Shown here in pieces: positions 22,701 to 47,357 of a stretch of DNA of 54,941 bases. Position numbers and translations under genes: made by a program. The number at the start of each line of letters is the position of its first letter. The first letter of the stretch is position 1. Origin of the DNA: Rhodospirillales bacterium (GTDB taxonomy: Bacteria; Pseudomonadota; Alphaproteobacteria; QKFK01; SZUA-500); NCBI GenBank assembly GCA_003252195.1, contig QKFK01000141.1, positions 1 through 54,941 on the forward strand. Direction: 5' to 3'. The notes beneath the pieces are model-generated. The model ran no database searches. It was not told the DNA's origin and saw only the letters and a program-made list of their open reading frames with translations.

Positions 22701-22800
22701 ATTAGTGTTCGCAGAGCAGCGAACAGGATAATATAAATAAAGCTCAAGAGTATTAGTAATGTTCGTAGAGCCACGAACAGGTTAATATAAACAAAGCTCA
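22701..22800. repeat. Two tandem ~46-49 nt units, each with a 7-bp hairpin (loops AGAGCA / AGAGCC)
   Basis: Unit 1 (22701-22746) has tgttcgc-agagca-gcgaaca. Unit 2 (22752-22800) has tgttcgt-agagcc-acgaaca. A compensatory C:G to T:A change preserves the stem. Both units end in aaagctca. Confidence 0.9.
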
Positions 22801-22816
22801 TATGTACATCTTGCCC

Positions 22817-23105: not shown

Positions 23106-23150
23106 TGGTGCCGACACACGGACTCGAACCGCGGACCCACTGATTACAAA
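23106..23150 (-). repeat. attL: 45-nt copy of the 3' part of tRNA-Thr (anticodon loop to CCA)
   Basis: Identical nucleotide for nucleotide to 47282-47326. The flanking bases differ on both sides. Confidence 0.9.
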
Positions 23151-23289
23151 ACAAAACCACGTATTTCCTTAGTTTTTCATAACATCACACGTACTAAAAA
23201 AGTCTTTTCGTTAACTTTTGGTAACAAAAAGAAACGAAAGGAACCAATCATGACGGAATAATTTTTCTGAACTTTTAAGCAAAATAAAT

Positions 23290-23330
23290 GCGAGGTTTGC
23301 AGACCTCGCATCTCATATAAACTAGTGCGC
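23290..23330 (+). other. Candidate oriT (inverted repeat plus MOBQ-like nick-region core)
   Basis: Hairpin gcgaggt-ttgcag-acctcgc (23290-23309), followed 12 nt later by ctAGTGCGCt (23322-23330). This resembles the AAGTGCGC core of RSF1010-type nic sites. It lies upstream of mobC/relaxase. Confidence 0.35.
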
Positions 23331-23442
23331 TAACACCAATCTGAATAACAATTAGATTGTAATGTATTTTTGCAACCAAAATCAAGGATTATTTTCTACA
23401 AAAATATATTGGTGAGCACTTATCCAAAAAAGGGTATATAAG

Positions 23443-24405
23443 ATGAAAAAGATAAGTGATTGTAACATCCACCTAAATTTAGGCAAAAGAGACGATACAG
23501 AAATAAACAAACAAATTACTAAATTAAAGGCAAAAGTTTCTGACCTACCACCAAACCAACTAGAACTACTTAAAAGCATGCTTTTCTCTGGAAAGATAAC
23601 AGAAATCATTGAAGAAAGCACCCCTGGCACAGTAATACATTTAATCATTTTGTTAATGTTCGTGGGTTTTCAAGACTGGAAGAATGGCCAAATTACCACA
23701 TATACATCACAAAAACTTCTTGCCGAGATTGAAGGGTGCTCGATAGAAACTATAAGAAAAAGACAAAGAGAGTTAGAACGTCTAGGGCTCTCTTTTGCAC
23801 ATTTTGATCATCAAAACCACCCTGCTGGCAATGAAGCCATAGATTTAACCCCTATTGCACTACAGTATTCCGAACTTAGAAACAAGGCAGAAGAAAAAAC
23901 TCAGGCACGAGAAAGAGAGAGAAAAGAACATCTCACATCAACTACCGAAGCTCTTTTCAATAATAATTGGGGAGCCCCCCAAGAAAAATTGGGACATATA
24001 CTATATACTAAAGATACTAGTAAATTTAAAAAAGAAAGTGAAATTGCTTTAAAGGAAGAAAAACTCAAAACCCAGCAATCTTATTCCAAGCAGAAGCAAA
24101 TATCTCCGTCTTCAAAAGAAATGATCCAGATTATATCTAAGCTCTCGCCAGAAGCTAATGATTGGGATACTGACATATTGGAGCGGATATACAAACAAAG
24201 GCTATATGTTAGCGATAGTGCTTGGGAAATAGCGAAATCAAGACATAGTCAACTCACAAGACTGGCTATTTTACTGGTGTCTCTCGTGCGATACGGCATC
24301 AAGAACCGAACATCATTTGCAGAAAGCATGCTCATGAGGAAGGATATTAACATCTGGATAACAGCAGGCAATCTAGCTGATAAGGGGGTGTGTTATGCAG
24401 CTTAA
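23443..24405 (+). CDS. Hypothetical DNA-binding (HTH-like) protein, possible replication or regulatory protein of the element
   Basis: IEGCSIETIRKRQRELERLGL is a wHTH-like segment. It is the first gene of the mobC-relaxase operon and overlaps mobC by 11 nt. Confidence 0.4.
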   Translation: MKKISDCNIHLNLGKRDDTEINKQITKLKAKVSDLPPNQLELLKSMLFSGKITEIIEESTPGTVIHLIILLMFVGFQDWKNGQITTYTSQKLLAEIEGCSIETIRKRQRELERLGLSFAHFDHQNHPAGNEAIDLTPIALQYSELRNKAEEKTQARERERKEHLTSTTEALFNNNWGAPQEKLGHILYTKDTSKFKKESEIALKEEKLKTQQSYSKQKQISPSSKEMIQIISKLSPEANDWDTDILERIYKQRLYVSDSAWEIAKSRHSQLTRLAILLVSLVRYGIKNRTSFAESMLMRKDINIWITAGNLADKGVCYAA

Positions 24406-24721
24406 AGATAACCACGCCAACAAATCACTTAGGCGGACAGTTAATGTCAAAATACGCCTATTCCCAGATGAATACAAACAGCTAAAACTATTAGCCCAAG
24501 GTTATTCTATGAGTATGTCTGCTTATATCCGCAAATCAGCACTAAAAGAAACCAAGGCTAACTCGACAGCCGTTTTGGCAGGACAGCTGTGCAGGTTGTT
24601 CATAAAGCTTTGCAATATTGAAAAAGACATTTCGAGTAGAACAAAAATATACCAAAGCAACATGCGTGAACTACGGGCTTTTATCGTTAAAACAGAAAAA
24701 TTATTTGAAAGGATTAAGTAA
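24395..24721 (+). CDS. mobC: MobC-type relaxosome accessory protein (ribbon-helix-helix)
   Basis: RTVNVKIRLFPDEYKQLKLLAQGYSMSMSAYIRKSAL. Lies immediately upstream of the relaxase. Confidence 0.75.
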   Translation: MQLKDNHANKSLRRTVNVKIRLFPDEYKQLKLLAQGYSMSMSAYIRKSALKETKANSTAVLAGQLCRLFIKLCNIEKDISSRTKIYQSNMRELRAFIVKTEKLFERIK

Positions 24722-26053
24722 ATGGTTATTGCAGAGAAGATGACTTATATAAACGAAACGCCATCGTTTCAAACCTTAGCAGCATATTTAACTCAAACTC
24801 CAGCCGAAGAAAACAGAATTTTATGTGGCAAAATTTACAATTGTGGAAATCTTGATGGCGAATTTGGCAAAAACGACCTAGATAGATTATATAAAGCTGC
24901 AGACATTATGAAGCATGTTGCTTCAACCAATAATAGGATAATTAAAAGCCCTCTTATCCATTATTCCATTTCGTTTCATCCCAGTGATAGGAATAAACTC
25001 AGCAGGTCTGATATGTTGGATTCATGTGATTATATTGTTGAGCAAAGCAAAATGCACGATTGCCAGTGTATATGTTGTTTTCATGATGACAAACACCATT
25101 TACATTTCCATATAATGTTAAACAGAGTAAAGCCAGCCGATACAACCGTATATGAGGAATGGGGAGACCTACGTGATCTTGAAAAGAAAATGAGAGCCCT
25201 AGAAAACAACTATGGACTAGTTATATGCGAAGGCAATAATTATACGTTTAATGGAAAAGACAAACGTGACTTAGATGAAGAAACCATGCAACGTGAATTA
25301 TTTGAAGCTTTATTAGAAAGATCTTTAAGTAAAAATTTCCTTTTGTTTGGGGACAATGAGAGAATTAAGACTTGTAGAGACGTCCCCATTTTAAATATCA
25401 AGCATATTCCTGAGATAACACAGAGATTGAGTTTAGAAATAATTCGTGCAATTGCAGAAAAGATGTCTTTTAATCTAAAAACAAAAGCTTTCACCCAAAT
25501 GGAAACAGACTTGATAGAAAAAAGCCTTAAACAGGTAAGAGAGATGAAAATAAGTAAGATAGAAAATCTTATAAAACAAGACTACACAGATCTTTATAAG
25601 TCTTCTCCAAACTTAGCTCTACCACACCTACTTGCATCATGGGATCTATCCGATCAAAAGGATCAAGCAAAGCTCTATACAAACATGATAAATCATATAC
25701 ATAAAACATCAGCAACCAACCAAAACAACAGCGAACTTGAAAAGGCTTTTTTTACAGCTCTTACCAAAATGGCAAAAGCCATACAAGGAAAAGCCACAAA
25801 AGATGAACTTAAAGCCAAGGTTGATTTATATGACATTTGCTTAAAAATGCTCGAGAAAGTAGCAGAAATAAGCAAAGGCATCATAAAGTTAAGAATATTA
25901 AAGATACCTTCTGTGAAACAGACTTACAAACAGATTGTTGATCTTAAACATAAAAACCAAACGCTACTAGATTTAACTCTACAACAAGAAGCAGCAAATA
26001 AAGCACCCGTAAAAACAAAGAAGAAACACAAAGACCGTTCTATTGAAATGTAG
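24722..26053 (+). CDS. Relaxase / mobilization nuclease (MobA/VirD2-type)
   Basis: HYSISFHP, plus the histidine triad FHDDKHHLHFHIMLNRV (HxDxxHxH). Confidence 0.8.
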   Translation: MVIAEKMTYINETPSFQTLAAYLTQTPAEENRILCGKIYNCGNLDGEFGKNDLDRLYKAADIMKHVASTNNRIIKSPLIHYSISFHPSDRNKLSRSDMLDSCDYIVEQSKMHDCQCICCFHDDKHHLHFHIMLNRVKPADTTVYEEWGDLRDLEKKMRALENNYGLVICEGNNYTFNGKDKRDLDEETMQRELFEALLERSLSKNFLLFGDNERIKTCRDVPILNIKHIPEITQRLSLEIIRAIAEKMSFNLKTKAFTQMETDLIEKSLKQVREMKISKIENLIKQDYTDLYKSSPNLALPHLLASWDLSDQKDQAKLYTNMINHIHKTSATNQNNSELEKAFFTALTKMAKAIQGKATKDELKAKVDLYDICLKMLEKVAEISKGIIKLRILKIPSVKQTYKQIVDLKHKNQTLLDLTLQQEAANKAPVKTKKKHKDRSIEM

Positions 26054-26110
26054 TAACACAATTTACTGTAAATACAGATACAAAGCTTACCTCTACTGTC
26101 TTACGCAAAT

Positions 26111-26138
26111 AAGCCCTCAATTAAGAGGGCTTATTTCT
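26111..26138 (+). terminator. Rho-independent terminator after the relaxase
   Basis: aagccctc-aattaa-gagggctt followed by atttct. Confidence 0.6.
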
Positions 26139-26281
26139 AATTCTTAGCATTTCTATCGCAGTATATTCCATAGCTATATGGTTCATATATGCCAAAACTT
26201 AAAGCACTAAACAATCCATTAACAAAGCTCCTATGGGTTTCCAAAGAAGTTATTGGGTACATGGTACTACCAACAGCTACG

Positions 26282-26411
26282 CTGTTAGCTATCGCTTTAC
26301 ACTCGTTTTTATGTAGTTTTTTGTTAATCTTAGCTCATTCCTGTCACTACAATAAACCAAAAACACACCTTAACAATATATCCTAGTTTGTCCCAATTGT
26401 TCCAACGGCGT
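26282..26411. repeat. Left arm of a ~130-bp imperfect inverted repeat
   Basis: Reverse-complementary to 35581-35711, with about 15 differences including one 1-nt indel (~88% identity by hand alignment). Similarity stops abruptly at both ends. Confidence 0.9.
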
Positions 26412-26443
26412 AAAATATATACAGTAATAGGTTATTAAATAGT

Positions 26444-28159
26444 TCATACTTGCCATATTTCCTTTGATAGCTCATAAAGCTCCAAGATTCTATCATTTAT
26501 TCTACTCTCATTCCATTCTTCATAAGACAAACACTCATCAGAAATATCAAGACCTGCCGCAAACTTCTTAAGACCACCATGCTTCAAATTTCCTTCCAAT
26601 TTTATATTCCAACTAGAATCTCTTATTGATGAGTTAAGAGAGCATGTAATTATCATAAGATTTCCAAGCTTTAGCAATAAGCGATCTCTTTCATTAGCCT
26701 GCAGTTCATTTAAATTATCACCCCAATTATTACGCCATTTCTTCGGCATCATATGCTCTAAGCTATAACTGTTTATTGGCAACAGACTTGTAGAATGTAG
26801 TTTATCATTTCTAACACTAAGCTCCATTATATACAAAACCAGCCTAGCCTGTTGATTTGTAAGGTTATTTTCAAAAAACGCCTTATAAAGCTCATCATTA
26901 TCAGGGAATTTATTTGCAATATCACCAAAATTAAACAATTCTTTTTTTAAAGCATCAAGTGAAAGCACTTCTTTTCTAATTAATTTTGCAAATAAATTAT
27001 TGTAGTCCTTATTAGTTTCCTTGCAAATCAACCTACGCATCAGAAAAGATTCTAAATGCATAAATATTCCATTTTTTTCATCATCATCATCAATATTTTT
27101 AACAACATACAAAATATAAGGAACAATAGTTGTTATACCTAAAGAAAATATAATGAGATTAAGCCTATCCAAACGACTGTTTTTATCAACATCAGAAAAT
27201 ATAATATTCTTATTAATGTTCTTTCTGTATAGATTTGCATAGTTGACGAGATCATATATAAACTCATCCTTAGTTTCTTTACTTTCGTATATACGATAAT
27301 CCCTCATATATTCCTTGTAATTATAAAACAAACTATCAAGTCCTATATATTTCTCTTTAGCCCCGCTCTTTATTAAAAGATAAGACTGTAACAACAAGTC
27401 TATATTAACACGATATAGTCTTCCACTTGTAAGCTCCATATCCCAAAACGACCTAATATCCTCATCCCCCTCAAAGGCTTCCTTCCATGTCTTTCCATAT
27501 AACTCTTCATCCTTTCTTTTGAATAGTTCATTCTTCAAAAGCTCTGCTGTTGTTAGAGATACGCCCAAAGAGTTTATAGTATCAAAAATTTGCTGTTCAT
27601 CTTCAGTTTCAAATAGATCGATCACAACGAAGTATAAATTATTTAGAATAACATCTTCTTTTATTTCTCTGAGAACGTCTTTTTTAGTTAAAAAATAGTT
27701 ATAACATAACAGTATATTATTGCTTTTATATTTATTAGTTAAGTCATCAGATAAATTACCATCAAGTATAGCTTCAAATATCTCAATATCATTGTGATTA
27801 TGTAATATTTTTAGATTGTTACCTTCTTTATTTAGCAGATTTCTAAAATTAAAATCAAAAAATTCACCAATATCTTTTATATTACAAATAACTTTAAACA
27901 TTAGAAGTAGTGTTGTTAACCGTTGTTGACCATCAACTATATTTCTATAGTCTCCAGTACAATTAGATGGTGTGCACCTTTGTTTTAGTATAAGAGACCC
28001 CATAAAATGCTCTCTTTTATTATCTGAAACATATCTAACATCATCTATAAATCTTGACCAATTTTTATCAGACCAAACATAACTTCTTTGAAAGAAGGGG
28101 ATTTCCAATGTTCTGTTATTGGTAAACACCTCATTTATTTTTCTCTTTCCAACATCCAC
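26444..28159 (-). CDS. DUF262/DUF1524 (GmrSD/BrxU-like) putative type IV modification-dependent restriction enzyme
   Basis: N-terminal IPFFQRSYVW and DGQQRLTT (DUF262). C-terminal SLEHMMPKKW ... GNLMIITCSLNSSIRD (DUF1524 His-Me-like). Confidence 0.75.
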   Translation of the reverse strand: MDVGKRKINEVFTNNRTLEIPFFQRSYVWSDKNWSRFIDDVRYVSDNKREHFMGSLILKQRCTPSNCTGDYRNIVDGQQRLTTLLLMFKVICNIKDIGEFFDFNFRNLLNKEGNNLKILHNHNDIEIFEAILDGNLSDDLTNKYKSNNILLCYNYFLTKKDVLREIKEDVILNNLYFVVIDLFETEDEQQIFDTINSLGVSLTTAELLKNELFKRKDEELYGKTWKEAFEGDEDIRSFWDMELTSGRLYRVNIDLLLQSYLLIKSGAKEKYIGLDSLFYNYKEYMRDYRIYESKETKDEFIYDLVNYANLYRKNINKNIIFSDVDKNSRLDRLNLIIFSLGITTIVPYILYVVKNIDDDDEKNGIFMHLESFLMRRLICKETNKDYNNLFAKLIRKEVLSLDALKKELFNFGDIANKFPDNDELYKAFFENNLTNQQARLVLYIMELSVRNDKLHSTSLLPINSYSLEHMMPKKWRNNWGDNLNELQANERDRLLLKLGNLMIITCSLNSSIRDSSWNIKLEGNLKHGGLKKFAAGLDISDECLSYEEWNESRINDRILELYELSKEIWQV

Positions 28160-28628
28160 GTCAGATCTCCTTAAATTTTATAACGACACACTCAGTATAT
28201 TGTTCATATTCACAGCCTAGTATTTTACTAATATAATTCTAATCTAGCAACCTAAATTATCTATCTTCATAGCCTAATTAAGTGCATTAAAATCCATATC
28301 ACACTCAGATACTGTGGCATCTCTAGTTTCAACTATGTACATCAACAAACACAAGGATAATACTGGTAGATTTTATAGTAGAAAACACCTAGATCAACCA
28401 TCTGAATGGTACGCTTAACCCCACCCTGCCACTCAAAAGAAAATTAACAATACTGTAAATGGCAAATAAAAAAGAGCTTAAACACGTGTAAAACAACCAA
28501 ACTCTTTGATCAAGAATAAAAAACAGCTTGAGTTGATTGAAAATTAAGGTAATCATTTGTATGATGAGTTTAATTTTATAAAACAAACAATAGTTGATTA
28601 AACATCTTAAGAGACTTAAGGACAAGCC

Positions 28629-31217
28629 ATGAACAAACAACAACTTGCTAACAAAATCTGGGCTTCTGCCAATAAAATGCGTTCTAAAATAGAGGCAAAT
28701 GAATATAAAGACTATATATTAGGTTTTATTTTTTATAAATATCTTTCTGAGAAGCAAGAAAATTTCTTAAAAGCGGAGGGCTATCAAACAAGTGATGTTA
28801 AGCAACTTAGTGAAGATAAAACACAAGAAGTTGATTATATCAAAAACAACATTGGCTATTTTATGGCTTATAACAACCTTTTCTCGACTTGGTTAAACAA
28901 GGGCTCTGACTTTAATGTGTCTAATGTTAGTGACGCTTTATCAGCTTTTTCAAGAAATATTAGCATAAATCATAAAAAGGTATTTGATGGTATTTTTAAG
29001 ACTTTAGAAACAGGGCTTAGTAAGTTAGGCGATACATCTGGAGCAAGAACCAAAGCAATTAGCGGATTGCTGGATTTAATTAAAGACATTCCCATGAATG
29101 GCAAACAAGATTATGATGTACTTGGATTTATATATGAATACCTTATTTCTCAGTTTGCGGCAAATGCAGGCAAAAAGGCTGGTGAGTTTTATACACCACA
29201 TGAAATTTCTGTTTTAATGTCAGATATAATTGCTGACCACTTAAAAGACAAGCAAGAAATTCAAATCTATGATCCAACTAGTGGTTCGGGCTCTTTATTG
29301 ATAAATATTGGTCAAAGTGTTGCTAAACATATGGCTGATAAAGATAAGATTAAATATTACGCCCAAGAGTTAAAAGGAAACACTTATAATCTTACTCGTA
29401 TGAATTTAATTATGCGTGGTATACTTCCAGATAATATTATTACTCGTAACGCTGATACACTAGAAGATGATTGGCCATATTTTGATGATAATGACCCAAC
29501 ATCTACTTATAATTTATTATCTGTTAATGCTGTTGTTTCTAACCCTCCATATTCTCAAAATTGGGAACCTAAAGATAAAGACAATGACCCAAGATACTCA
29601 GGCTTTGGACTTGCCCCTAAAACAAAAGCAGATTATGCCTTTTTGCTTCATGATTTGTATCATTTAAAGCATGATGGCATTATGACCATTGTTTTGCCAC
29701 ATGGTGTGTTGTTTAGAGGTGGGTCTGAAGGAGAAATCCGTAAGAATTTGATAGAAAAAGATCATATTGAAGCGGTTATTGGCTTGCCTGCCAATATTTT
29801 CTTTGGTACAGGTATTCCAACGATTATTTTAGTGCTAAAAAGAACAAGAGCAACTTCAGATGTTTTATTTGTTGATGCATCAAAAGGATTTGTAAAAGTT
29901 GGCAAAAATAACCAACTAAGAGCATCAGACATTAAAAAGATTGTCGACACTGTTATAAACAAAGAAAACACTGATAAATACTCAAGATTGGTGGCAAAAG
30001 AAGAAATTAAACAAAACGAATATAACTTAAATATTCCTCGCTATATTGACTCATCAGAACCAAGTGAGAGCTTTGATATTTATGCCACAATGTTTGGAGG
30101 TATTCCGCAGCATGAAGTTGATGAATTAAACTCATATTGGCAAGCATTTCCAACCCTGCAGTCAGATTTATTCACAAAAGAAGAAAATGGATATAATAAA
30201 GTAAAGAATGAAGATATAAAACAAACTCTGAACGACAATGAAGATGTTCAGAGTTTTATAAGTAGTTTTAAAAATTCATTTGCAGATTTTTCTGAGTTTT
30301 TAAAACAAGAATTATTGACTGATATAGCTGATATTAATATATCCAATAAAAAAATAGTTTTAACACAAGATATTTTCTCTCGTTTACAAGACTTGCCATT
30401 GATTGATAAATATCATGCTTATCAGTTTTTAGATGATAATTGGCAACAAATTAAAACTGATTTTGAAATTATTCAAACAGAAGGCTTTGAAGCAACAAAA
30501 ATTGTTGATGCCAATATGGTTACAAAAAACAAAGATGGAAAAGAAATAGAAGTCCAAGATGGCTGGATTGGTCGAATTATTCCATTTGAAGTAGTTCAAA
30601 ATTATATTTTAAAAGACGAAGCTGATGCCCTTAAAGATAAAGAGAACAGATTATTAGAAATAACATCAGAGTTTGACGCAATTTTAAGTGAATTATCAGA
30701 AGAAGACAAAGAGGCAGAAACAGTAAACGAAGATAAAACAAGTTTTATTAATAAAGAGGTTGTTAAAGAGGCGAAACGCATAAAAGCAGAAATAAAACAA
30801 GGCGAAGTTTTTGATGCAGATAGTTATGAGCAAAATATTTTACAAGTTGATAAGTTGATAACAAAAGAAAAAGCCCTTAAAAAACAAGTTAAAGATGAAA
30901 CTACAGCACTTATTTTAAAGACAAAAGCAACTATTGAAAACCTATCAGATGAGAGAGCATTAGAGTTATTAGAGAAAAAATGGATAATGCCATTAATTGC
31001 AGATTTATATGCCTTACCGATAAATGTTGTAAATGATTTGACTTATAGGGTTAAAATTTTAGCAGAAAAATATGCCACAACACTTGTGGATGTAGAAGAA
31101 GATATTGCAAGCACCTCAACAACTATTTGCTCAATGATTGATGATCTGGTTGGCAATGACTTTGATATGCAAGGCTTAGCAGAGTTTAAGAAATTGTTGG
31201 GTGGTTATGATGAGTAA
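28629..31217 (+). CDS. hsdM: Type I R-M methyltransferase subunit HsdM with ~350-aa coiled-coil C-terminal extension
   Basis: N-terminal LANKIWASANKMRSKIEANEYKDYILGFIFYKYLS, then DPTSGSGSLL (motif I) and VVSNPPYSQNW (NPPY). Confidence 0.9.
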   Translation: MNKQQLANKIWASANKMRSKIEANEYKDYILGFIFYKYLSEKQENFLKAEGYQTSDVKQLSEDKTQEVDYIKNNIGYFMAYNNLFSTWLNKGSDFNVSNVSDALSAFSRNISINHKKVFDGIFKTLETGLSKLGDTSGARTKAISGLLDLIKDIPMNGKQDYDVLGFIYEYLISQFAANAGKKAGEFYTPHEISVLMSDIIADHLKDKQEIQIYDPTSGSGSLLINIGQSVAKHMADKDKIKYYAQELKGNTYNLTRMNLIMRGILPDNIITRNADTLEDDWPYFDDNDPTSTYNLLSVNAVVSNPPYSQNWEPKDKDNDPRYSGFGLAPKTKADYAFLLHDLYHLKHDGIMTIVLPHGVLFRGGSEGEIRKNLIEKDHIEAVIGLPANIFFGTGIPTIILVLKRTRATSDVLFVDASKGFVKVGKNNQLRASDIKKIVDTVINKENTDKYSRLVAKEEIKQNEYNLNIPRYIDSSEPSESFDIYATMFGGIPQHEVDELNSYWQAFPTLQSDLFTKEENGYNKVKNEDIKQTLNDNEDVQSFISSFKNSFADFSEFLKQELLTDIADINISNKKIVLTQDIFSRLQDLPLIDKYHAYQFLDDNWQQIKTDFEIIQTEGFEATKIVDANMVTKNKDGKEIEVQDGWIGRIIPFEVVQNYILKDEADALKDKENRLLEITSEFDAILSELSEEDKEAETVNEDKTSFINKEVVKEAKRIKAEIKQGEVFDADSYEQNILQVDKLITKEKALKKQVKDETTALILKTKATIENLSDERALELLEKKWIMPLIADLYALPINVVNDLTYRVKILAEKYATTLVDVEEDIASTSTTICSMIDDLVGNDFDMQGLAEFKKLLGGYDE

Positions 31218-32397
31218 TGTAACATGGATAAACATCCCTGATCTGAGGTTTAATGGCTTTAGTGATGAGTGGGAAGAAAAAGAATTGGAAGCTCTTGCCA
31301 ATAAATTTGATAATGAAAGAGTTCCTATATCTGCAAGAAATAGAACAAGCGGAAACACCCCTTACTATGGGGCGAATGGTATTCAGGATTATGTTGAAGG
31401 TTATACGCATAAGGGGGAATATGTTCTTGTAGCAGAAGATGGAGCTAATGATATTAAAAATTATCCTGTGCAGTATATTAACGGAAAAGCCTGGATAAAC
31501 AATCATGCTCATGTTTTACAAGGAAAGAAAGAAGTATTAAAAACACTTTTTTTAAAATATCTTTTTTCTCAAACAAATATTGAGCCATTTTTAGTAGGTG
31601 GTGGTAGAGCAAAATTAAATGCATCCGTTATGATGAAAATTAACTTTGTTTATCCTCAAAACATAAACGAACAAACAAAAATTGGCAACCTATTCAAAAA
31701 TATTGATGAGTTGATTACCAATCAAGATAAAAAAATAAAAAAGCTTGAAAATATCAAAAAAGCTCTGCTTGAAAAAATGTTCCCTCAAAATGGAGCAACT
31801 ACCCCAAAATTAAGATTCAAAGTGTTTAATGATGACTGGGAAGAGTGTAAACTGAGAGATATTGCTGATATTATTGGAGGTGGTACGCCTAACACTAGTG
31901 TTTCAGAGTATTGGAATGGATCTATAGATTGGTATGCTCCTGCTGAAATTGAAGGACAAAGATATGCTATCTCGAGTAAAAAGAAAATAACAGAATTAGG
32001 CTTTCAAAAAAGTTCTACAACAATGCTTCCAGCTAAAAAAACATTACTCTTTACTAGTCGTGCAGGAATTGGAAAAATGGCTATATTGCTAAATCCAGCA
32101 ACAACGAATCAAGGATTTCAATCTCTTGTTTTAAAAGACGGATACAATTCATATTTTATTTATTCTCTTAGTAGTGATATTAAAAAGAAAGCTGAGAGTA
32201 TCGCTTCTGGCTCAACATTTCTTGAAATATCAGGAAAGATGCTTGGCAGTCTTGTAATACAAGTAGTATGTGAAAACGAACAAACAAAAATCGGCAACCT
32301 ATTTAAAAATATTGACGATCTCATCGCTCAACAAAATCAAAAATTGGAAAAATTAAAAAACATCAAAACCGCCCTGCTTGGCAAAATGTTTGTATAA
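31201..32397 (+). CDS. hsdS: Type I R-M specificity subunit HsdS (two TRDs)
   Basis: PDLRFNGFSDEW start region. The conserved spacer is duplicated as NEQTKIGNLFKNID(E/D)LI...L(E/G)KMF at mid-gene and at the C-terminus. The true start is probably ATG 31207/31210. Confidence 0.9.
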   Translation: MVMMSNVTWINIPDLRFNGFSDEWEEKELEALANKFDNERVPISARNRTSGNTPYYGANGIQDYVEGYTHKGEYVLVAEDGANDIKNYPVQYINGKAWINNHAHVLQGKKEVLKTLFLKYLFSQTNIEPFLVGGGRAKLNASVMMKINFVYPQNINEQTKIGNLFKNIDELITNQDKKIKKLENIKKALLEKMFPQNGATTPKLRFKVFNDDWEECKLRDIADIIGGGTPNTSVSEYWNGSIDWYAPAEIEGQRYAISSKKKITELGFQKSSTTMLPAKKTLLFTSRAGIGKMAILLNPATTNQGFQSLVLKDGYNSYFIYSLSSDIKKKAESIASGSTFLEISGKMLGSLVIQVVCENEQTKIGNLFKNIDDLIAQQNQKLEKLKNIKTALLGKMFV

Positions 32398-32409
32398 AAG
32401 GAGATTATA

Positions 32410-35400
32410 ATGACATTTAATACAGAAAAAGAATTTGAAAATGCATTTATAGCTCTCCTTACAACAAAAGGCTGGGAATCTGAGGTTATTTATAATCCAA
32501 CAGAAGAACAACTAATTCAAAATTGGGCAGATATCCTTTTTAATAATAACAAAGAAATTGATAGATTAAATAATCAAGCTCTAACTGATGGTGAGATGGC
32601 TCAAATTGTTGAACAAATAACGGCTTTAAAAACTCCTCTAGCCCTCAATGGCTTTATCAATGGCAAAACTGTTACAATAAAAAGAGATAATCCAAATGAC
32701 ACCTTGCACTTTGGCAAAGAAGTTAGCTTAAAAATATATGACCGTCACGAAATTGCTGCAGGGCAAAGTCGTTATCAAATTGTTAGCCAACCACAATTCA
32801 AACGACAATCACCTCTTGCTCATGACCGCAGAGGTGATGTTATGCTACTGATTAATGGAATGCCAGTTATTCACATAGAGCTGAAAAAAAGTGGTGTTCA
32901 TGTTAGTCAAGCTTACAATCAAATAGAAAAATACTCATCAGAAAGTATTTTTACTGGCTTATTTTCTCTTATTCAAATTTTTGTAGCAATGAATCCTGAA
33001 GAAACTCTTTATTTTGCCAATCCAGGACAAAATGGTATATTCAACAAGGATTATTATTTCCATTGGGCAGATTTCAATAATGAGCCAATAAATGAATGGG
33101 GAAAAGTTACAGTTTCACTCTTATCAATTCCGATGGCACATCAATTAATAGGTTTTTATACCGTTGCTGATAACGGCGATGGACTATTAAAAGTTATGCG
33201 TTCTTATCAATATTATGCTGCTAATTCAATTTCTGACAAGGTTGCAAAAATAGATTGGAAAGCAAAAAATATTTATGGCGGTTATATTTGGCACACCACA
33301 GGAAGTGGTAAAACAATGACTAGTTTTAAGTCAGCTCAGCTTATTGCTAGCTCAAAAGATGCTGATAAAGTTATCTTTTTAATGGATAGGATAGAACTTG
33401 GCACTCAGTCATTAAAAGAGTATCGTGGCTTTGCAAATGATAATGAAACTGTTCAAGCAACAGAAAATACAATCATTTTAATCAATAAATTAAAAAGTGG
33501 TTCACCCCAAGATACTTTGATTGTAACCTCTATTCATAAAATGAGCAACATTCAAGAAGATGGTCTAAACACAAAAGATATTGCAAAAATGAACTTAAAA
33601 AGAATAGTGTTTATTGTGGATGAGGCTCATCGTTCCACCTTTGGAGATATGTTAATTAATATTAAAGATACGTTCCCAAATGCAATATTTTTTGGCTTTA
33701 CTGGCACCCCAATTCAAGATGAAAATGCAAAAAAAGATCATACTACTGCAACGGTCTTTGGAGACGAGCTTCATAAATATACAATTGCCGATGGCTTGCG
33801 TGATAAAAATGTGTTAGGTTTTGACCCTGATAAAATTCTTACATACAAAGATAAAGACCTAAGAAAAGAAATTGCTTTGCTAAAATCCAAAGCGAAGACA
33901 GAAGTTGAAGCTCTTGCCAATCCTCAAAAAGCCGCAATTTATCAAAAATATATGGATAGTAATCAAATTAAAATGTATGGCTATCAAACAGATAAAGGGG
34001 AATATATAAAAGGTATTGAAGATTACGTTCCCACAGCTCAATATGAAAGAGAAGAACATCAAAATATAGTTGTAACAGATATCTTAGATAACTTTTTAAG
34101 ATTAAGCCGTAATAAAAAATTTCATGCCATTTTTGCAACATCTAGCATCAAAGAAGCAATAGAATATTATCGCCTTATAAAACAGAAACAACCAGATTTA
34201 AAAACAACAGCTCTTTTTGATCCTAATGAAAATAACGAAAGACCATCAAAATTTAAAACAGATGGGATTATTGAAATATTAAGCGATTATAACAATAGAT
34301 TTAATCAAAGGTTTGAGCTTGCAACTCATGGAAAATTTAAAAAAGATATTTCATTGCGTATGGCTCATAAAGAATACTACAAAAACATAGATCCAGATAA
34401 GCAGTTAGACTTATTGATTGTCGTTGACCAAATGCTAACAGGCTTTGATTCTAAATGGGTAAATACTTTATATCTTGATAAGAAGTTAGAAAATGAAGGA
34501 CTTATTCAAGCATTTTCTAGAACCAACCGCCTATTCAATCAACATGAAAAACCTTTTGGAATAATTAGATATTATAGATACCCACATACAATGGAGCAAA
34601 ATATTCAAAAAGCCCTAAAACTATACTCTGGAGATAAGCCATTAGCACTATTTGTTGATAAGCTAGAACAAAACCTTATAAAAATGAATGAAGTTTATAA
34701 TGAGATTTTTAACCTATTTGAATGTGCTAAAATACAAAACTTTGAAAAATTGCCCGATGATAATTCAGAACGAGCAAAATTTGCAAAACTATTCAAGCAA
34801 TTTTGTAATCATCTGGAAGCTGCCAAAATTCAAACATTTGTTTGGGAAAAGCTAGAATATAAATTCTCAAAAAGAGTTATTAAGCTCAATCTTGATGAAG
34901 CAACTTATTTAACTCTTCTACAACGTTATAAAGAACTATCAAAAGATACTGGTGGCGGTCAATACAATGATGTTGCTTTTGATATTGATGGTTATTTAAC
35001 AGAAATTGATACAGATACAATTGATTTTGATTATATGAACTCTCGTTTTGATAAATATCTTAAAAATTTATCATCTGCTGATAAAGATGAAATAAAATCA
35101 GAATTACATAAATCTTTTGCTATTTTATCACAAGAAGATCAAAAATATGCAAATATCTTTTTACATGACATCGAGTGTGGTAATATTGTTTTAGAAAATA
35201 GCAAAACCTTGAAAGACTATATTACCCAATATAAATACACTGCCGAAGAAAAAAGGATTGATAAGATTGTAGATGCTTTAGGCGTTGATAAAACTTTATT
35301 AAAAGCAATGCTAAACACAGGTATTACAAAAGCAAATATCAATGAATACGGCAGGTTTAATAATTTAAGAGAAAGTGTTGATAAAAACAAAGCAAGAGAA

Positions 35401-35505
35401 TATTTTAATCAGCGAGATAATGAGAACCTACCAGTTTTTAAATTAAACATAGCAATAGATAATATTTTAAGAGACTTCATTTTAAGCAATGGAGATTTTT
35501 CATGA
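32410..35505 (+). CDS. hsdR: Type I R-M restriction subunit HsdR
   Basis: N-terminal nuclease GDVMLLINGMPVIHIELKK, then HTTGSGKTMTSF (motif I) and VDEAHRS (motif II). Confidence 0.9.
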   Translation: MTFNTEKEFENAFIALLTTKGWESEVIYNPTEEQLIQNWADILFNNNKEIDRLNNQALTDGEMAQIVEQITALKTPLALNGFINGKTVTIKRDNPNDTLHFGKEVSLKIYDRHEIAAGQSRYQIVSQPQFKRQSPLAHDRRGDVMLLINGMPVIHIELKKSGVHVSQAYNQIEKYSSESIFTGLFSLIQIFVAMNPEETLYFANPGQNGIFNKDYYFHWADFNNEPINEWGKVTVSLLSIPMAHQLIGFYTVADNGDGLLKVMRSYQYYAANSISDKVAKIDWKAKNIYGGYIWHTTGSGKTMTSFKSAQLIASSKDADKVIFLMDRIELGTQSLKEYRGFANDNETVQATENTIILINKLKSGSPQDTLIVTSIHKMSNIQEDGLNTKDIAKMNLKRIVFIVDEAHRSTFGDMLINIKDTFPNAIFFGFTGTPIQDENAKKDHTTATVFGDELHKYTIADGLRDKNVLGFDPDKILTYKDKDLRKEIALLKSKAKTEVEALANPQKAAIYQKYMDSNQIKMYGYQTDKGEYIKGIEDYVPTAQYEREEHQNIVVTDILDNFLRLSRNKKFHAIFATSSIKEAIEYYRLIKQKQPDLKTTALFDPNENNERPSKFKTDGIIEILSDYNNRFNQRFELATHGKFKKDISLRMAHKEYYKNIDPDKQLDLLIVVDQMLTGFDSKWVNTLYLDKKLENEGLIQAFSRTNRLFNQHEKPFGIIRYYRYPHTMEQNIQKALKLYSGDKPLALFVDKLEQNLIKMNEVYNEIFNLFECAKIQNFEKLPDDNSERAKFAKLFKQFCNHLEAAKIQTFVWEKLEYKFSKRVIKLNLDEATYLTLLQRYKELSKDTGGGQYNDVAFDIDGYLTEIDTDTIDFDYMNSRFDKYLKNLSSADKDEIKSELHKSFAILSQEDQKYANIFLHDIECGNIVLENSKTLKDYITQYKYTAEEKRIDKIVDALGVDKTLLKAMLNTGITKANINEYGRFNNLRESVDKNKAREYFNQRDNENLPVFKLNIAIDNILRDFILSNGDFS

Positions 35506-35580
35506 CAACATATACAACGAAAATGCTATAACGAATGATACTTTCAATGATTTAATTTTAGAGTAAAAAAAGGTAACTGT

Positions 35581-35711
35581 ACGGCATCGGAACAAGTGGG
35601 ACAAACTAGGATGTATTGTTAAGGTGTAGTTTTTGGTTTATCGTAGTGACTGGAAGGAACGAAGATGAACAAAAAACTACATAAGAGCGAGCGTAAAGCG
35701 ATAGCTAACAG
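35581..35711. repeat. Right arm of the ~130-bp inverted repeat
   Basis: Reverse complement of 26282-26411 (~88% identity). Confidence 0.9.
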
Positions 35712-35958: not shown

Positions 35959-38178
35959 ATGCCTGACAAAATAAAGTTAAATCTAGAAAACTGCTATGGC
36001 ATTGGAAAACTAGAAGAAGAGTTGGAATTCAAGCATAAAGGCTATGCGATTTACGCCCCTAACGGCGTAATGAAAACATCATTTGCGAAAACAATGATAG
36101 CGTTGTCTAAGGGCAACAATCCTGAAGATCTAGCTTTTCCAGAGCGCAACACGATTTGCGAAGTAACTTGGAATGATGTCTTTATAAAGAGCGAGGAAAT
36201 ATTTGTTGTCAAATCTTATGACGATAAGTATTCACCAGATGGTGTCTCAACTCTGTTGGCTAATGAAGCCTTAAAGGCTAAATATGAAACGATACACAAA
36301 GATATTGGTGAGGCTAAAAAAAGCTTAGATAAAAGACTACGACATCTAGCAGGTTATGGAGAAAAATCCAGAGAAAATTTAGATCCAATTCTGGAGCGTA
36401 TTTTCAAGCAGCAATACTATGATGCGTTGTTAAGTATAGAATCTGAAATTGATACACTTAAAAAAGAAGATTTTGGCGATGCTGATTATAAAATAATTTT
36501 CAATCAAAAAGTTATAGACTTACTAAAAGAAGACACATCCAAAGCCAATATTGACGACTTTGCTCAAAAATACGATGAGCTTACTGAAAGGTCACCTATT
36601 TTAAGAAAAGGTTTCCAGTACCATCATGTTAACCAAGTTCGTCAACAGTTGCAATCAAACAACTTTTTCGCTGCTGGTCACACTATTAATCTATGCGATA
36701 AAAATGATGGCAAGAAAGAAGAGCTTGCGACAGACTCTTCTTTGCTAAAACGAATTGAGGAAGAGAAACAGCGTGTTTTCAGTGATCCTGATTTAAAGAA
36801 AAAATTTGATACCTTTAACGCTAAGCTAAAAAATAAAGAGTTACAAGATTTCAGGGATTACATTACACAAAACCAACATATTTTACCAGAGTTACAAGAT
36901 CTTGAGGCTTTTGAAAGAAAGCTATGGCTACAGTATCTTTATAGATCAAAAGCAGAATATGAGTTACTAATAGAGAAGTATAAAAAAGGCCAGGTTGAAC
37001 TTGCTAAAATAATTTCTGAGGCCAAAGACAATAGGAATGATTGGGATAATGTTATCGATGATTTTAATCGCCGCTTTTTACACTTGCCTTTTCAGCTTTC
37101 GGTCGAAAATAAAGCGGACGTAATTCTAAAAGATACAGCCCCTTCGGTGGTATTCAATTTTATTGATGGTAAAGATCAACGCAAATACCCAGCCACCCAA
37201 AGAAATGACTTGTTAAATCTCCTTAGTACAGGGGAAGCTAGAGCATTGTATATTTTGAATATAATGTTTGAAGTACACACAAGATGGAATGCTCGTAAAA
37301 AGACGTTGTTTGTTTTTGATGATATTGCAGACTCATTTGATTATAAAAACAAATTTGCAATTATTGATTACCTTGATTACATCATTAAATCTGAAGATAC
37401 AAACTTCATAGCAATTGTTCTTACACATAACTTTGATTTTCTTCGCACTATTGAGAGTAGAGATATATGCCTAGCAAGCCAGTGTTATATGGCACTAAGA
37501 AATCAAGGTCAAATCACATTAACGCCATTCAAGAACCGATCAGATATCAGGAATCCATTCCATAAGTGGAAAAATAGGTTGAATGAAGCAGAAATTCAAA
37601 TTGCTTACATACCATTTCTAAGAAATGTGATTGAATATACGTGCGGAATAAAAGATGAACATGGGGCGGATAACGCAGACTATATAACCCTTACAAATAT
37701 GTTGCATTATAAAGATGAAACAGAAGATTTAAAAATCCAAGATTATAAAAATATTTTTGAGAAATATTTTACAAATCTAACTTTCCCGCAGGTTAATTTA
37801 AGTAAAGATATTTTAGGCTATATAAAAGAAACGGCAGATAATTGCTTAAATCAACAGGATGGAATAAATCTTGAACATAAGATTGTTCTATCGATAGCAA
37901 TTCGTATTTTGGCCGAAAAATTTATGATTGAAAAGATTCGAGGTGTTGAACCAGATTATGATCCTGCACAAAAACAGATGGGTAAATTACTTCATGACTT
38001 TAAAAATAAGTTAAACAACCTGATTGATGATATTAGGCTTTTAAAGAGAATTAATCTAATTACCCCAGCAAATATCCACATTAATGCTTTTATGTATGAG
38101 CCTATTTTAGATATGGGTTTTGGTGAATTAAAGGATCTATACCAAGAAGTTAATGCACGGCAAGCATCCCAACCTTAG
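35959..38178 (+). CDS. ABC-type ATPase of the PrrC/RloC (AAA_13-like) kind with long helical insert and C-terminal R-x3-E...H segment
   Basis: Degenerate Walker A YAPNGVMKTSF, signature LSTGEARAL, Walker B LFVFDDIADSFD and LTHNFDF. C-terminal FLRNVIEY...NMLHY. The ATG at 35959 with a GAGAG RBS is preferred over TTG 35947. Confidence 0.6.
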   Translation: MPDKIKLNLENCYGIGKLEEELEFKHKGYAIYAPNGVMKTSFAKTMIALSKGNNPEDLAFPERNTICEVTWNDVFIKSEEIFVVKSYDDKYSPDGVSTLLANEALKAKYETIHKDIGEAKKSLDKRLRHLAGYGEKSRENLDPILERIFKQQYYDALLSIESEIDTLKKEDFGDADYKIIFNQKVIDLLKEDTSKANIDDFAQKYDELTERSPILRKGFQYHHVNQVRQQLQSNNFFAAGHTINLCDKNDGKKEELATDSSLLKRIEEEKQRVFSDPDLKKKFDTFNAKLKNKELQDFRDYITQNQHILPELQDLEAFERKLWLQYLYRSKAEYELLIEKYKKGQVELAKIISEAKDNRNDWDNVIDDFNRRFLHLPFQLSVENKADVILKDTAPSVVFNFIDGKDQRKYPATQRNDLLNLLSTGEARALYILNIMFEVHTRWNARKKTLFVFDDIADSFDYKNKFAIIDYLDYIIKSEDTNFIAIVLTHNFDFLRTIESRDICLASQCYMALRNQGQITLTPFKNRSDIRNPFHKWKNRLNEAEIQIAYIPFLRNVIEYTCGIKDEHGADNADYITLTNMLHYKDETEDLKIQDYKNIFEKYFTNLTFPQVNLSKDILGYIKETADNCLNQQDGINLEHKIVLSIAIRILAEKFMIEKIRGVEPDYDPAQKQMGKLLHDFKNKLNNLIDDIRLLKRINLITPANIHINAFMYEPILDMGFGELKDLYQEVNARQASQP

Positions 38179-38287: not shown

Positions 38288-38986
38288 ATGAACAAAGAAC
38301 ATTTTAATAAATTTAGTGAATGTATAAATGATTCATTAAAAGAAGAGCAATGGGTTGGCAACAACATAAATAAATGGTGGAAGTGGGTTTCAGCTAAAAC
38401 AGAAACTCAACTACATTGTGACGCGTTACCAAACAATAGATTAACAAGAAAAGAACTAAAATCTTTATGCAGTAACAACAGTGGAGCATCAGATCTAGCT
38501 TGCTCTATTGCGATTATGGCTTGGGGTGGTCAAAATAGAAATCACGGCATAACTCTATTTAATAGATTTGATGAAATCAAGCCCATTATTAAGGATATGA
38601 GAAAAGGAAACATAAATCATATAGAAGCTTATAAGCAATTTTATAAAATATGGATTGCCGAAAAACCATTAGGCATGGGAGCCGCATATTTTTCCAAGCT
38701 AATATTCTTCTGTGAACCAAGCCACAAAGGCTACATAATGGACCAATGGACTTCAAAATCTATAAATATGCTTACAAATGAACCAATAGTCCATCTCATA
38801 TCTAATCATGTTAGCAACAAAAACACTGATATAACATACTCAACGTTCTGTAATACAGTAGATAATATTGCACAAACTCTAGGATATAAAGGCGAAGAAA
38901 TAGAAATTGCAATGTTTTCTAAAGGTGGACGCAACAAATGGCAATGGAGGGAGTATGTGTGTAATAACTACAACAAACAAACATAA
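38288..38986 (+). CDS. Hypothetical 232-aa protein (possibly a helix-hairpin-helix/OGG-fold-like protein; unverified)
   Basis: Segments IMAWGGQNRN and GMGAAYFSKLIFFCEP...YIMDQW recall glycosylase-fold proteins. Lies 110 nt downstream of the ATPase. Confidence 0.3.
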   Translation: MNKEHFNKFSECINDSLKEEQWVGNNINKWWKWVSAKTETQLHCDALPNNRLTRKELKSLCSNNSGASDLACSIAIMAWGGQNRNHGITLFNRFDEIKPIIKDMRKGNINHIEAYKQFYKIWIAEKPLGMGAAYFSKLIFFCEPSHKGYIMDQWTSKSINMLTNEPIVHLISNHVSNKNTDITYSTFCNTVDNIAQTLGYKGEEIEIAMFSKGGRNKWQWREYVCNNYNKQT

Positions 38987-40715: not shown

Positions 40716-40724
40716 ATCATGCTC

Positions 40725-40970
40725 CTATGCTGCCTTTTTAACTTCTTCTTTGATTTCTTTTTTAAGCTTATTTAGCTCACGCTTTGTATTTGCCTTGCTA
40801 ATGATAAAGCAAGTAGCAATCACATTAAGAATGTGCAACAGCACACCAAAGCCCATCACAAACGTAACCAAGCTAACGATAAACACTATTCCAGAGATTA
40901 TTGCAGATATTATCTTGCGAGATATGAGCAATGATAATGGCGGAATAAAAATAGCTAAAATGTAATTCAT
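40725..40970 (-). CDS. Small two-helix membrane protein with Lys/Glu-rich tail
   Basis: Hydrophobic segments ILAIFIPPLSLLI and GIVFIVSLVTFVMGFGVLLHILNVIATCFII. Lies 9 nt upstream of the lipoprotein gene. Confidence 0.55.
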   Translation of the reverse strand: MNYILAIFIPPLSLLISRKIISAIISGIVFIVSLVTFVMGFGVLLHILNVIATCFIISKANTKRELNKLKKEIKEEVKKAA

Positions 40971-45688: not shown

Positions 45689-45916
45689 ATGGCAAAACAA
45701 GATAATTATTTAAACCAGAAGCAAGTTATCGATTTGATGGGAATAACTAAAACAACATTTAATCGGAATCTTCATAAATACATATATGCTGGAATGCCTG
45801 CAAAAATAGATCTTATTGGCAAATGGAATAAGACTGATATAATAAAATGGCTTAAAAGTCAGAATTTTTCTATTCCGCATGATCCTTTTATAGAAAAGGA
45901 GATTAGCGATGAGTAA
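45689..45916 (+). CDS. AlpA/excisionase-family small HTH protein
   Basis: LNQKQVIDLMGITKTTFNRNL. AGGAG RBS. Overlaps the integrase start. Confidence 0.7.
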   Translation: MAKQDNYLNQKQVIDLMGITKTTFNRNLHKYIYAGMPAKIDLIGKWNKTDIIKWLKSQNFSIPHDPFIEKEISDE

Positions 45917-47120
45917 AATTAAACTACCTACAAATGTTATAAAAAAGGTCACTAAAAGTGGGACATACCTCTATTGGGTTGCACCAAAAAAAGATGTGTA
46001 CCAAGGTTTTAAAGCGAAAAGTTGCCGACTACCAGACGACAAGTTTTCTATGAACAAAATGGCTCATGAATTAAATCTAGAACTTGAAGAATTTAGAAAT
46101 CAAGATACTTTTTGTTTAGTTGGTGATGTTTTAACCAAAAATCCAACTTTTCAGAATGTTATAGATTGGTTTAAAACAACTGCTGAATTCACTACATCCA
46201 TAGAAGAAAAGACCAGAAAAGACTACATATACAGCCTAAATAGATTTTTAGACACACAAGTTCCGTGGAGAAACAACAATACAATTTCAGAGATTAGAGT
46301 TACTTCATTTGTTCCTGGCGAAGCATTAAGAATGAAAAACCTATTACTACAAAATTGCTTGTCAGGATCTGGTGAAATACAAACGAACAGAATTCTGGCA
46401 ATTGCAAACAGAGCTTTAAATCTAGCAGAAGATTTTGATGTTATAGAAAGCAATCCATTCAAAAAGGTAAAGAATTTTAGAGAAAACACGCGTAGTAGAT
46501 TTGACGAAAGTACAATTTTTACGAAAGATGATATTGATAAATTAGTATATTGCTCTGACAATAATGGATACCATGAATTATCATTAGCAATATTGCTGGC
46601 AAACCACCTGTGTCAACGTATGGGGGATGTTGTAAATAGCATAAAAAAATCATCCATTAAAAACAACTTTGATACAATTGAGTTCATCCAAAACAAGACA
46701 AAGAAGCATGATACTCACCCTCGTATTTTCCCATTAAAAACTCCAGGTGGAAAAGAAATATTCCCAGACCTGCTACCAAGGATAAAAGAAATGTTTTATC
46801 TGCATAATTTAGACACATTAATAGCCTATAAAAGTAAACATAGCGGAGAATATATTAAATACAATACAGACCTCGTACGCAAGCATTTCCATAAAGTACG
46901 TAAAATAGCTGGTGTATCAGAGGCAAAGAAATTCATGCATTTCAGATCAAGTGGTTTAACTGCTATGGCAAAATGTGGTTGCGACCAACAAATGTTGTTA
47001 AACTACTCAGGACACAAATCTATTAAAATGCTTGATAGATATGTTAAATCAGACACGTCGCAAACCATTCTTGGAGCAATGAAACGATTTCACCCTGAAA
47101 GGCTAAACGACGAGGTATAG
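45909..47120 (+). CDS. int: Tyrosine site-specific integrase
   Basis: C-terminal catalytic region MHFRSSGLTAMAKCG...LLNYSGHKSIKMLDRYV (HxxR ... GH ... Y). Lies adjacent to the tRNA attachment site. Confidence 0.85.
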   Translation: MSKIKLPTNVIKKVTKSGTYLYWVAPKKDVYQGFKAKSCRLPDDKFSMNKMAHELNLELEEFRNQDTFCLVGDVLTKNPTFQNVIDWFKTTAEFTTSIEEKTRKDYIYSLNRFLDTQVPWRNNNTISEIRVTSFVPGEALRMKNLLLQNCLSGSGEIQTNRILAIANRALNLAEDFDVIESNPFKKVKNFRENTRSRFDESTIFTKDDIDKLVYCSDNNGYHELSLAILLANHLCQRMGDVVNSIKKSSIKNNFDTIEFIQNKTKKHDTHPRIFPLKTPGGKEIFPDLLPRIKEMFYLHNLDTLIAYKSKHSGEYIKYNTDLVRKHFHKVRKIAGVSEAKKFMHFRSSGLTAMAKCGCDQQMLLNYSGHKSIKMLDRYVKSDTSQTILGAMKRFHPERLNDEV

Positions 47121-47281: not shown

Positions 47282-47357
47282 TGGTGCCGACACACGGACT
47301 CGAACCGCGGACCCACTGATTACAAATCAGTAGCTCTACCAACTGAGCTATGTCGGC
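47282..47357 (-). tRNA. tRNA-Thr (anticodon UGU), 76 nt with encoded CCA
   Basis: The reverse complement reads GCCGACATAGCTCAGTTGGTAGAGCTACTGATTTGTAATCAGTGGGTCCGCGGTTCGAGTCCGTGTGTCGGCACCA. It has a 7-bp acceptor stem, anticodon loop TTTGTAA and a TTCGAGT T-loop. Confidence 0.9.

Follow-up and report, generated by a model that had tools for sequence, protein, structure and literature searches.

The restriction cassette and its inverted arms

The stretch of DNA analysed here, contig QKFK01000141.1 of GenBank assembly GCA_003252195.1 (54,941 nt, from a Rhodospirillales bacterium; hereafter the window), carries a mobilisable element of 24.2 kb integrated at a tRNA-Thr gene, and wholly inside this element, bounded as it is by attachment (att) sites, sits a cassette of restriction genes enclosed by two inverted repeats, the arms. 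The att sites are a 48-nt direct repeat, 98% identical between its two copies, which corresponds to the 3' part of the tRNA gene (Table 1). The block between the arms measures about 9.2-9.4 kb and holds a gene for a GmrSD-like type IV restriction enzyme together with hsdM, hsdS and hsdR of a type I restriction-modification (R-M) system, and nothing else. An earlier, sequence-only reading of this DNA had proposed just this gene content and had seen no recombinase within the block, and both points are borne out. Indeed, the 55 kb encode no transposase and no invertase, and the sole recombinase is the integrase of the element, 10 kb from the cassette. Putative promoters for the divergent genes lie inside the cassette; therefore, an inversion of the cassette would not rewire expression.

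In a global alignment, the left arm and the reverse complement of the right arm are 88.6% identical over 132 columns, with 14 substitutions and one indel. A repeat search splits the pair at this 1-nt indel into 26282-26364/35629-35711 (83 nt, 89%) and 26354-26412/35580-35638 (59 nt, 85%). The edges are sharp, the flanking 40 nt matching at 13 of 40 positions on the outer side and at 8 of 40 on the inner side, and arm-derived probes, 24 and 28 nt long, find two sites in the window, the arms themselves, where shuffled sequences lead one to expect 0.00. A target-site duplication was not found: the outer flanks, which end in CAGCTACG at the left arm and begin with ACTCATTA at the right arm, have no direct repeat in common. 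The inverted repeat with its coordinates, its sharp edges and the lack of a target-site duplication had all been reported from the sequence-only reading, and each of them holds. A single arm was also considered as a structure of the type of a miniature inverted-repeat transposable element (MITE), and this was rejected, since the two ends of one arm are unrelated and there is no flanking duplication. At the outer edge of the left arm (26270-26300), a 6-bp palindrome, AACAGC-TAC-GCTGTT, lies across the boundary; it has no counterpart at the right arm and is possibly there by chance.

The arms are non-coding. Short hydrophobic open reading frames (ORFs) overlap both of them, and the sequence-only reading had taken the conservation of these frames to be driven by the nucleotides rather than by a peptide, a view that the closer comparison supports. 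In the frame that reads LLAIAL, each of the nine substitutions that precede the indel alters the encoded residue, and from the indel onwards the frame is shifted. Stops occur in every one of the six frames of the arms, and the short ORFs begin beyond the repeat, with N-termini that bear no relation to one another. Furthermore, a composite query of the 12 reading frames of both arms found no match in 5.8 billion proteins. The short ORFs were consequently rejected as genes on the grounds of the non-synonymous changes, the frameshift, the stops and the lack of a protein match. A search of Rfam gave no match on either arm; a match to Phe_leader at 26104-26216 (E = 0.014, below threshold), which overlaps a terminator hairpin, was dismissed.

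Table 1. Features of the element, its cassette and the two arms (window coordinates)
Feature	Position	Strand	Remark
attL	23106..23153	.	repeats the 3' part of tRNA-Thr over 48 nt
NikA/TraJ/MobA-like ribbon-helix-helix relaxosome accessory protein	24395..24721	+	matches NikA-like, MobA and TraJ models
Relaxase, TraI/MobA(P) type	24722..26053	+	stop codon 229 bp upstream of left arm
Terminator-like hairpin between relaxase gene and left arm	26107..26136		
Left arm	26282..26412	+	131 nt, outer to inner on + strand
Left-arm stem-loop	26312..26367	+	TGTAGTTTTT(T)GTT ... AAC(C)AAAAAC-ACA; 1-nt bulge from the indel
Left-arm nick-like motif TATCCTAG	26379..26386	+	separated from the stem by 11 nt
16-nt block ATCCTAGTTTGTCCCA, identical in both arms	26380..26395	+	right copy 35597-35612
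GmrSD-like type IV restriction enzyme (DUF262/DUF1524; GmrSD_N + GmrSD_C)	26444..28159	-	
Divergent intergenic region, sigma-70-like sites both ways	28160..28628	.	sites from consensus matches alone
hsdM, type I methyltransferase	28629..31217	+	
hsdS, specificity subunit	31201..32397	+	called gene start 31210
hsdR, type I restriction subunit	32410..35505	+	
Right arm	35580..35711	-	132 nt, outer to inner on - strand; 88.6% identical to left arm
Right-arm nick-like motif CATCCTAG	35606..35613	-	
Right-arm stem-loop	35625..35681	-	interrupted stem of 10+3 (or 10+4) bp
Tyrosine integrase of the element	45909..47120	+	right end of the element
tRNA-Thr(TGT)	47282..47357	-	its 3' 48 nt (47282-47329) are attR

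An origin-of-transfer-like anatomy

When the arms are read from the outer to the inner end, both have the same layout: a conserved 19-nt block, an interrupted stem of 13 bp around a loop of about 28 nt (TGTAGTTTTT(T)GTT ... AAC(C)AAAAAC(T)ACA), an 11-nt spacer, the octamer (T/C)ATCCTAG and then TTTGTCCCA. This order recalls the origin of transfer (oriT) of certain conjugative systems. MOBP relaxases, among them TraI of RP4, VirD2 and the VirD2 of H. pylori Tfs4, cut at (C/T)ATCCTG(C/T), a short way 3' of an inverted repeat, and are left joined to the 5' end (PMC3772185). In both arms of the cassette, an inverted repeat of unexceptional stem energy lies immediately upstream of the putative nick region, and a relaxase gene of MOBP type, preceded by a gene for a ribbon-helix-helix accessory protein, lies nearby. 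Within the element, YATCCTAG occurs at just two intergenic sites, which are the two arms.

The differences between the arms are unevenly spread. Only two of the 15 fall within the roughly 47 nt of the stem and of the spacer plus motif, and the other 13 lie in the remaining 84 nt or so. The stem holds the indel and no substitution, the spacer and motif differ at the Y position only, and the apical loop takes six of the 14 substitutions. The left arm is oriented away from the relaxase gene, and both arms point into the cassette, in the order of stem, presumed nick and cassette.

The type of the relaxase has been judged from several comparisons. The protein passes the cut-off of the Pfam Relaxase model (73 bits), as does the product of the upstream gene with its NikA-like model. 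The sole NCBIfam match of the relaxase is TraI/MobA(P) (NF041893), at 91.7 bits and below the family cut-off of 250 bits, and TraI/MobA(P) is also the annotation of its sole plasmid relatives, which are 25-30% identical to it. The relaxase has, in addition, a putative Tyr22 motif (LAAYLTQ) and a putative motif HDDKHHLHFH, which we take to resemble those of RP4 TraI. In the intergenic regions beside the two nearest plasmid relaxases, putative variants of the motif that are one base off, AACCTGCC and TATCCAGG, were found.

Searches for other copies

No further copy of an arm was found with exact seeds, a 19-mer from the outer block and a 23-base pattern from the inner block, in 185,579 species-representative genomes or in the JGI metagenomes, a kind of search that overlooks copies diverged inside the seed. 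Five seeds run against IMG/VR gave chance matches only: the viral matches of the 16-mer proved to be a phage gene encoding NKWDKLGF, and those of the 17-mer extend over at most 26 nt. A blastn search with the arm against PLSDB plasmids and GenBank phages found no copy either. The arms do not, then, have the distribution of a dispersed intergenic repeat or MITE; the 55 kb hold two copies, both at the cassette boundaries, and the collections searched hold none. It should be noted that the lineage is essentially unsampled. Each window protein that was looked up, housekeeping genes included, is a singleton at 90% identity, and the next relatives are distant (55% identity for GmrSD, 48% for the best match of PepF and 45% for the single relative of the relaxase).

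This relative of the relaxase is encoded by L023, a related element from the same metagenome. An 893-nt module with two small ORFs (window 40419-41311, L023 5241-6133) is 95.7% identical between the two, and the mob regions are about 68% identical. The terminator of the relaxase gene immediately precedes the module in L023; the window copy is found 15 kb off and in the opposite orientation, which points to a recent exchange of modules or rearrangement between elements.

Possible recombination between the arms in the source metagenome

Evidence that the arms may recombine with each other comes from the Logan assembly of run SRR7216773, which was made independently of the window assembly with k = 31. 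Three Logan contigs are 100% identical to the window: L002 (24464-26395), L001 (26366-35612) and L025 (35682-38347). The end of L002 overlaps the start of L001 by exactly 30 nt, that is, by k-1, the mark of a branch in the graph, and L001 ends at 35612. When a de Bruijn graph (k = 31) was simulated from the window alone, no break arose between 25000 and 37000. A single added hybrid sequence, which consists of the left flank, the left-outer arm through ATCCTAGTTTGTCCCA, the right-inner arm and the end of hsdR, reproduces the observed pattern exactly, with one contig ending at 26395 and the next running 26366..35612.

Other explanations of the breaks were tried in the same simulation. A C-to-T single-nucleotide variant of the right arm was rejected, since it would put the end of L002 at 26394 and not at the observed 26395. 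The reciprocal hybrid alone was also rejected, since the simulated contig ends differ from those observed. A clean inversion isomer is unsupported, because both reciprocal hybrids together predict contig ends that are not seen. Thus one chimeric arm is needed, left-outer to right-inner, with the crossover within the 16-nt block that bears the motif.

Taken together, these results suggest that the arms recombine with each other in the source community. The suggestion of the sequence-only reading that the block moves or inverts as a unit is accordingly upheld in part and indirectly: the graph needs exactly one chimeric arm, which connects the side of the relaxase with the end of hsdR, but the reciprocal junction that a clean inversion calls for is absent. 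A one-sided join of this kind would be expected of a single event in which a relaxase cleaves and joins between nick sites on opposite strands, and would be expected equally of template switching at an inverted repeat. The one-sided picture could also stem from a low-coverage path lost in graph cleaning, or from a chimera formed in the polymerase chain reaction.

A further break lies at the other side of the cassette. L025 starts at 35682, where the k-1 overlap coincides exactly with the 30 nt at the outer end of the right arm (35682-35711), which suggests that a second flank, or a variant at 35681, is joined at the outer edge of the right arm in the source community. No corresponding break is present at the outer edge of the left arm, where L002 runs through.

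A model for the cassette

These findings have led to the hypothesis that the arms are an oriT-like module that was duplicated in inverted orientation, that suits the MOBP-type relaxase beside it and that recombines at the motif-bearing block, a reading that is advanced tentatively and with a little less than even confidence. In this model, the TraI/MobA(P)-like relaxase of the element, aided by its NikA-like partner, would bind the stem-loop and nick in or beside ATCCT/AG (the slash marks the presumed nick), and the relaxase domain would cleave and attach to the sequence AACAATAYATCCTAGTTTG. Transfer has an established 5'-to-3' polarity, and entry of the relaxase operon into the recipient last is the usual arrangement. 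Transfer started at either arm would carry the cassette in first and, if started at the left arm, the relaxase operon last. In addition, with two nick sites on opposite strands, either cleaving and joining by the relaxase or ordinary recombination in the shared block could link the outer half of either arm with the inner half of its counterpart, and the cassette would thereby become a recombining segment. The repeat, its non-coding character, the order of stem, spacer and motif, the type and place of the relaxase, and the need for one chimeric arm in the source metagenome with its crossover in the motif-bearing 16-nt block are shown; what we infer is a real nick site at the motif, action of the relaxase on this site and formation of the chimera by the relaxase. 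The stronger version, in which both arms are live nick sites and the conjugative relaxase doubles as the recombinase of the cassette, flipping, re-joining or swapping defence cargo, is considered unlikely.

Were this stronger version correct, R-M and other defence cassettes that lack a transposase would gain a concrete means of movement, with the cargo in the leading DNA whichever origin fires. How such cassettes are exchanged between islands has been an open question since the class "flanked by long inverted repeats" was first catalogued. If the repeats are duplicated oriTs used by the neighbouring relaxase, then strand transfer by an HUH relaxase at nick sites becomes a testable mechanism, and conjugative DNA processing would be directly linked to the shuffling of defence cargo. 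If, on the other hand, the duplication is passive, the locus is one more case of a known class.

Several observations weigh against the hypothesis. The core of the MOBP motif is not intact: the arms have ATCCTA rather than ATCCTG, matching five of six core bases and six of eight consensus positions, and the mismatch is the very base beside the presumed nick (A, not G). The stem is AT-rich and of ordinary energy, the right arm ranking 7th of the 44 ATCCT[AG] sites in the window, and the motif strand folds with z-scores of +1.28 (left arm) and -1.11 (right arm). The resemblance of the motif was, moreover, recognised after the sequence had been inspected and not predicted beforehand, and two copies of the arm do not permit comparative or covariation support. 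The reciprocal chimera, right-outer to left-inner, is absent from the cleaned graph, and a simple inversion is not demonstrated. The 6.1 kb of L023 contain no arm-like sequence, and no arm-like nick region above the shuffled background; L023 has a hairpin of its own upstream of nikA, which is the canonical position. A rival candidate for the oriT of the window element likewise lies upstream of the mob operon, at 23154-23442. Here (23290-23340), a perfect 9-bp inverted repeat, ATGCGAGGT-ttgcag-ACCTCGCAT (about 23296-23319), is followed by AGTGCGC, with CTAGTGCGCTAAC and a second 6-bp inverted repeat; this site could be the real oriT, or a promoter or terminator region. In view of these points, the arms are not classed as a MOBP oriT, although they may function in the manner of one. 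Finally, a search of the literature found no report of inverted duplicate oriTs flanking cargo.

Other explanations of the arms

One competing explanation is that the inverted duplication is passive, a scar of cargo acquisition or a neutral segmental copy, which provides just 131 bp of homology for general recombination or template switching. With an identity of 88.6% and 14 scattered substitutions, the arms do look like an old duplication drifting apart, there are no other copies in any collection searched, and the hairpin is statistically unexceptional. With about six identical blocks, the chance that a crossover falls in a given one of them is roughly 1 in 6, and the elements of this family are mosaic, as the 893-nt module shared with L023 illustrates (95.7% identity against about 68% for the rest). 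What this explanation does not account for as readily is that both edges are sharp and that the substitutions avoid the stem and the motif region, that the arrangement of motif and stem fits the type of the adjacent relaxase, and that the graph is explained by one crossover class and by one of the two reciprocal junctions. Passive duplication is regarded as less likely than not. The arms might instead be the terminal inverted repeats of a non-autonomous, transposon-like R-M unit served by a transposase in trans. A class of R-M genes that are flanked by long, imperfect inverted repeats unique in their genome, and that enclose no gene for mobility, has been described (Furuta et al. 2010; PMC2853133), the sharp edges agree with it, and a second flank at the outer edge of the right arm would produce a contig start such as that of L025, at the outermost 30 nt of this arm. 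Yet the left-arm outer edge is without an alternative flank, because L002 crosses that edge unbroken. Furthermore, the similarity is nearly uniform over 131 bp and not confined to short terminal repeats, and target-site duplication and transposase are both lacking in the 55 kb. The proposal that the cassette is mobilised in trans, which the sequence-only reading had put forward, has no support as a transposon model: the target duplication is missing, and neither other copies nor other cargo between arm pairs were found. Such a unit is held to be improbable.

It could also be argued that each arm is a small gene, either for a toxin-like peptide of hydrophobic character or for an RNA, small or antisense, whose targets would be the 3' ends of hsdR and of the GmrSD gene. 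Apart from the short ORFs that overlap both arms, the outward-read strand of the right arm folds well (z = -4.55), and a weak -35/-10 match points inward at the inner edge of the left arm. The corresponding fold of the left arm is, however, unremarkable (z = -1.69), and the coding comparison described above (nine of nine non-synonymous substitutions upstream of the indel, a frameshift, ORF N-termini that are outside the repeat and unrelated) together with the lack of a protein match in any frame and of an Rfam match makes this explanation very improbable. Lastly, the window is a metagenome-derived contig and short-read graphs tangle at repeats, so that the inverted repeat or the placement of the cassette might have been made by misassembly. 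Against this, the independent Logan assembly reproduces the cassette and both flanks in three contigs at 100% identity, with an overlap of exactly k-1 = 30 nt between L002 and L001 across the left junction; the repeat is therefore not an artefact of a single assembler. The arms also differ at 15 positions and are therefore distinct loci. An assembly artefact is barely credible.

The neighbourhood of the cassette

Defence genes are not confined to the cassette. The gene next to the right arm (35959-38178, 739/743 aa), which had been labelled an ABC ATPase, matches the PADLOC candidate PDC-S46 from end to end at 789 bits; since it lies outside the right arm, the arms do not enclose all of the defence cargo. 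The next gene encodes a protein of the OGG-like glycosylase family (38288-38986). In the gene-poor stretch between this gene and the module shared with L023, there is a 34-nt direct repeat (39363-39396/39412-39445; 85% identity, 49-nt spacing). About 20 tandem repeats of 18 nt, or six codons, occupy 44724-45108 within the ORF 44284-45507, whose matches (to an EntC-like cell-wall-binding protein) are weak and driven by the repeat.

Outside the element, roughly 300 nt from attL, lie two tandem 6A RNA motifs of Rfam (RF02925) on the + strand, at 22701-22752 and 22755-22806, which score 45.7 and 50.1 bits, above the gathering score; the reverse strand of the 22701-22752 copy holds TATCCTGT from 22729. 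A separate, dense defence island occupies 91-22490, to the left of attL. It includes a HipA-like kinase, a DRT type 3 system (Drt3a 3146-4492, Drt3b 1084-3156) and, broken up by Fic and ORF6N genes, a type III R-M system (res 4496-7462, mod 8949-10784). Also present are an AbiJ/Abi_C protein, a DUF4391 protein with a Snf2-like helicase (best PADLOC match "HKD+Snf2"), a superfamily 1 (SF1) helicase with DUF2726 (MkoA-like) and PDC-S28 (19215-21719).

Comparison with known systems

The invertible segments and shufflons that alter hsdS resemble this locus in having a segment between inverted repeats beside a type I R-M system. They differ in that the present locus has no invertase gene and no second hsdS, and its repeats lie outside all coding sequence. 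Since there is no invertase, and since the putative promoters are inside the cassette and would give no switch in expression, a site-specific invertible switch is unlikely.

A likeness is also found in the class catalogued by Furuta, Abe and Kobayashi in 2010, in which the mechanism of movement was left open and pairs made up of a type I and a type IV system were noted to travel together (PMC2853133). The cassette shares with this class an R-M system flanked by inverted repeats of more than 20 bp that are not of high copy number and that enclose no mobility gene. In the best-documented cases, the repeats are 26-65 bp long (60/65 bp around the R-M genes in the X. oryzae example; PMC2853133) and accompanied by an 8-bp target duplication, whereas here they are 131 bp long and no such duplication is seen. 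Furthermore, unlike those cases, the locus sits in an integrative element that bears a relaxase, and its repeats resemble the oriT of that element.

Two systems offer parallels for paired sites. The borders of the transferred DNA (T-DNA), which are processed by VirD2, are two copies of a MOBP nick sequence that delimit a segment, and the left arm has CAATATATCCT in common with the border, whose sequence is supported by a primer in PMC3478159. The T-DNA borders are, however, 25-bp direct repeats, and the segment is excised as a single strand; the arms are inverted, 131 bp long and have a stem-loop. ICEclc, according to the papers that cite the 2011 study by Miyazaki and van der Meer, has two functional oriTs (PMC10018362, PMC6561031) and so is similar in having two oriTs and one relaxase on one integrative element; in those citing papers the ICEclc relaxase is called TraI, and the likeness rests on the dual-oriT feature.

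Recombination between oriTs that is catalysed by a relaxase is established for R64 NikAB, R388 TrwC and pBMB0228 Mob; in R64 it is stimulated by NikA, and in pBMB0228 the exchange takes place within a 24-bp shared nick region (PMC5714925). The known oriTs are directly repeated or on separate molecules, so that deletion, resolution or cointegration results, whereas those proposed here are inverted and their activity is deduced from the sequence and the assembly graph. What the cassette would share with these systems is two copies of a nick region for one HUH relaxase, an exchange confined to a short shared nick region and the presence of a NikA-type protein.

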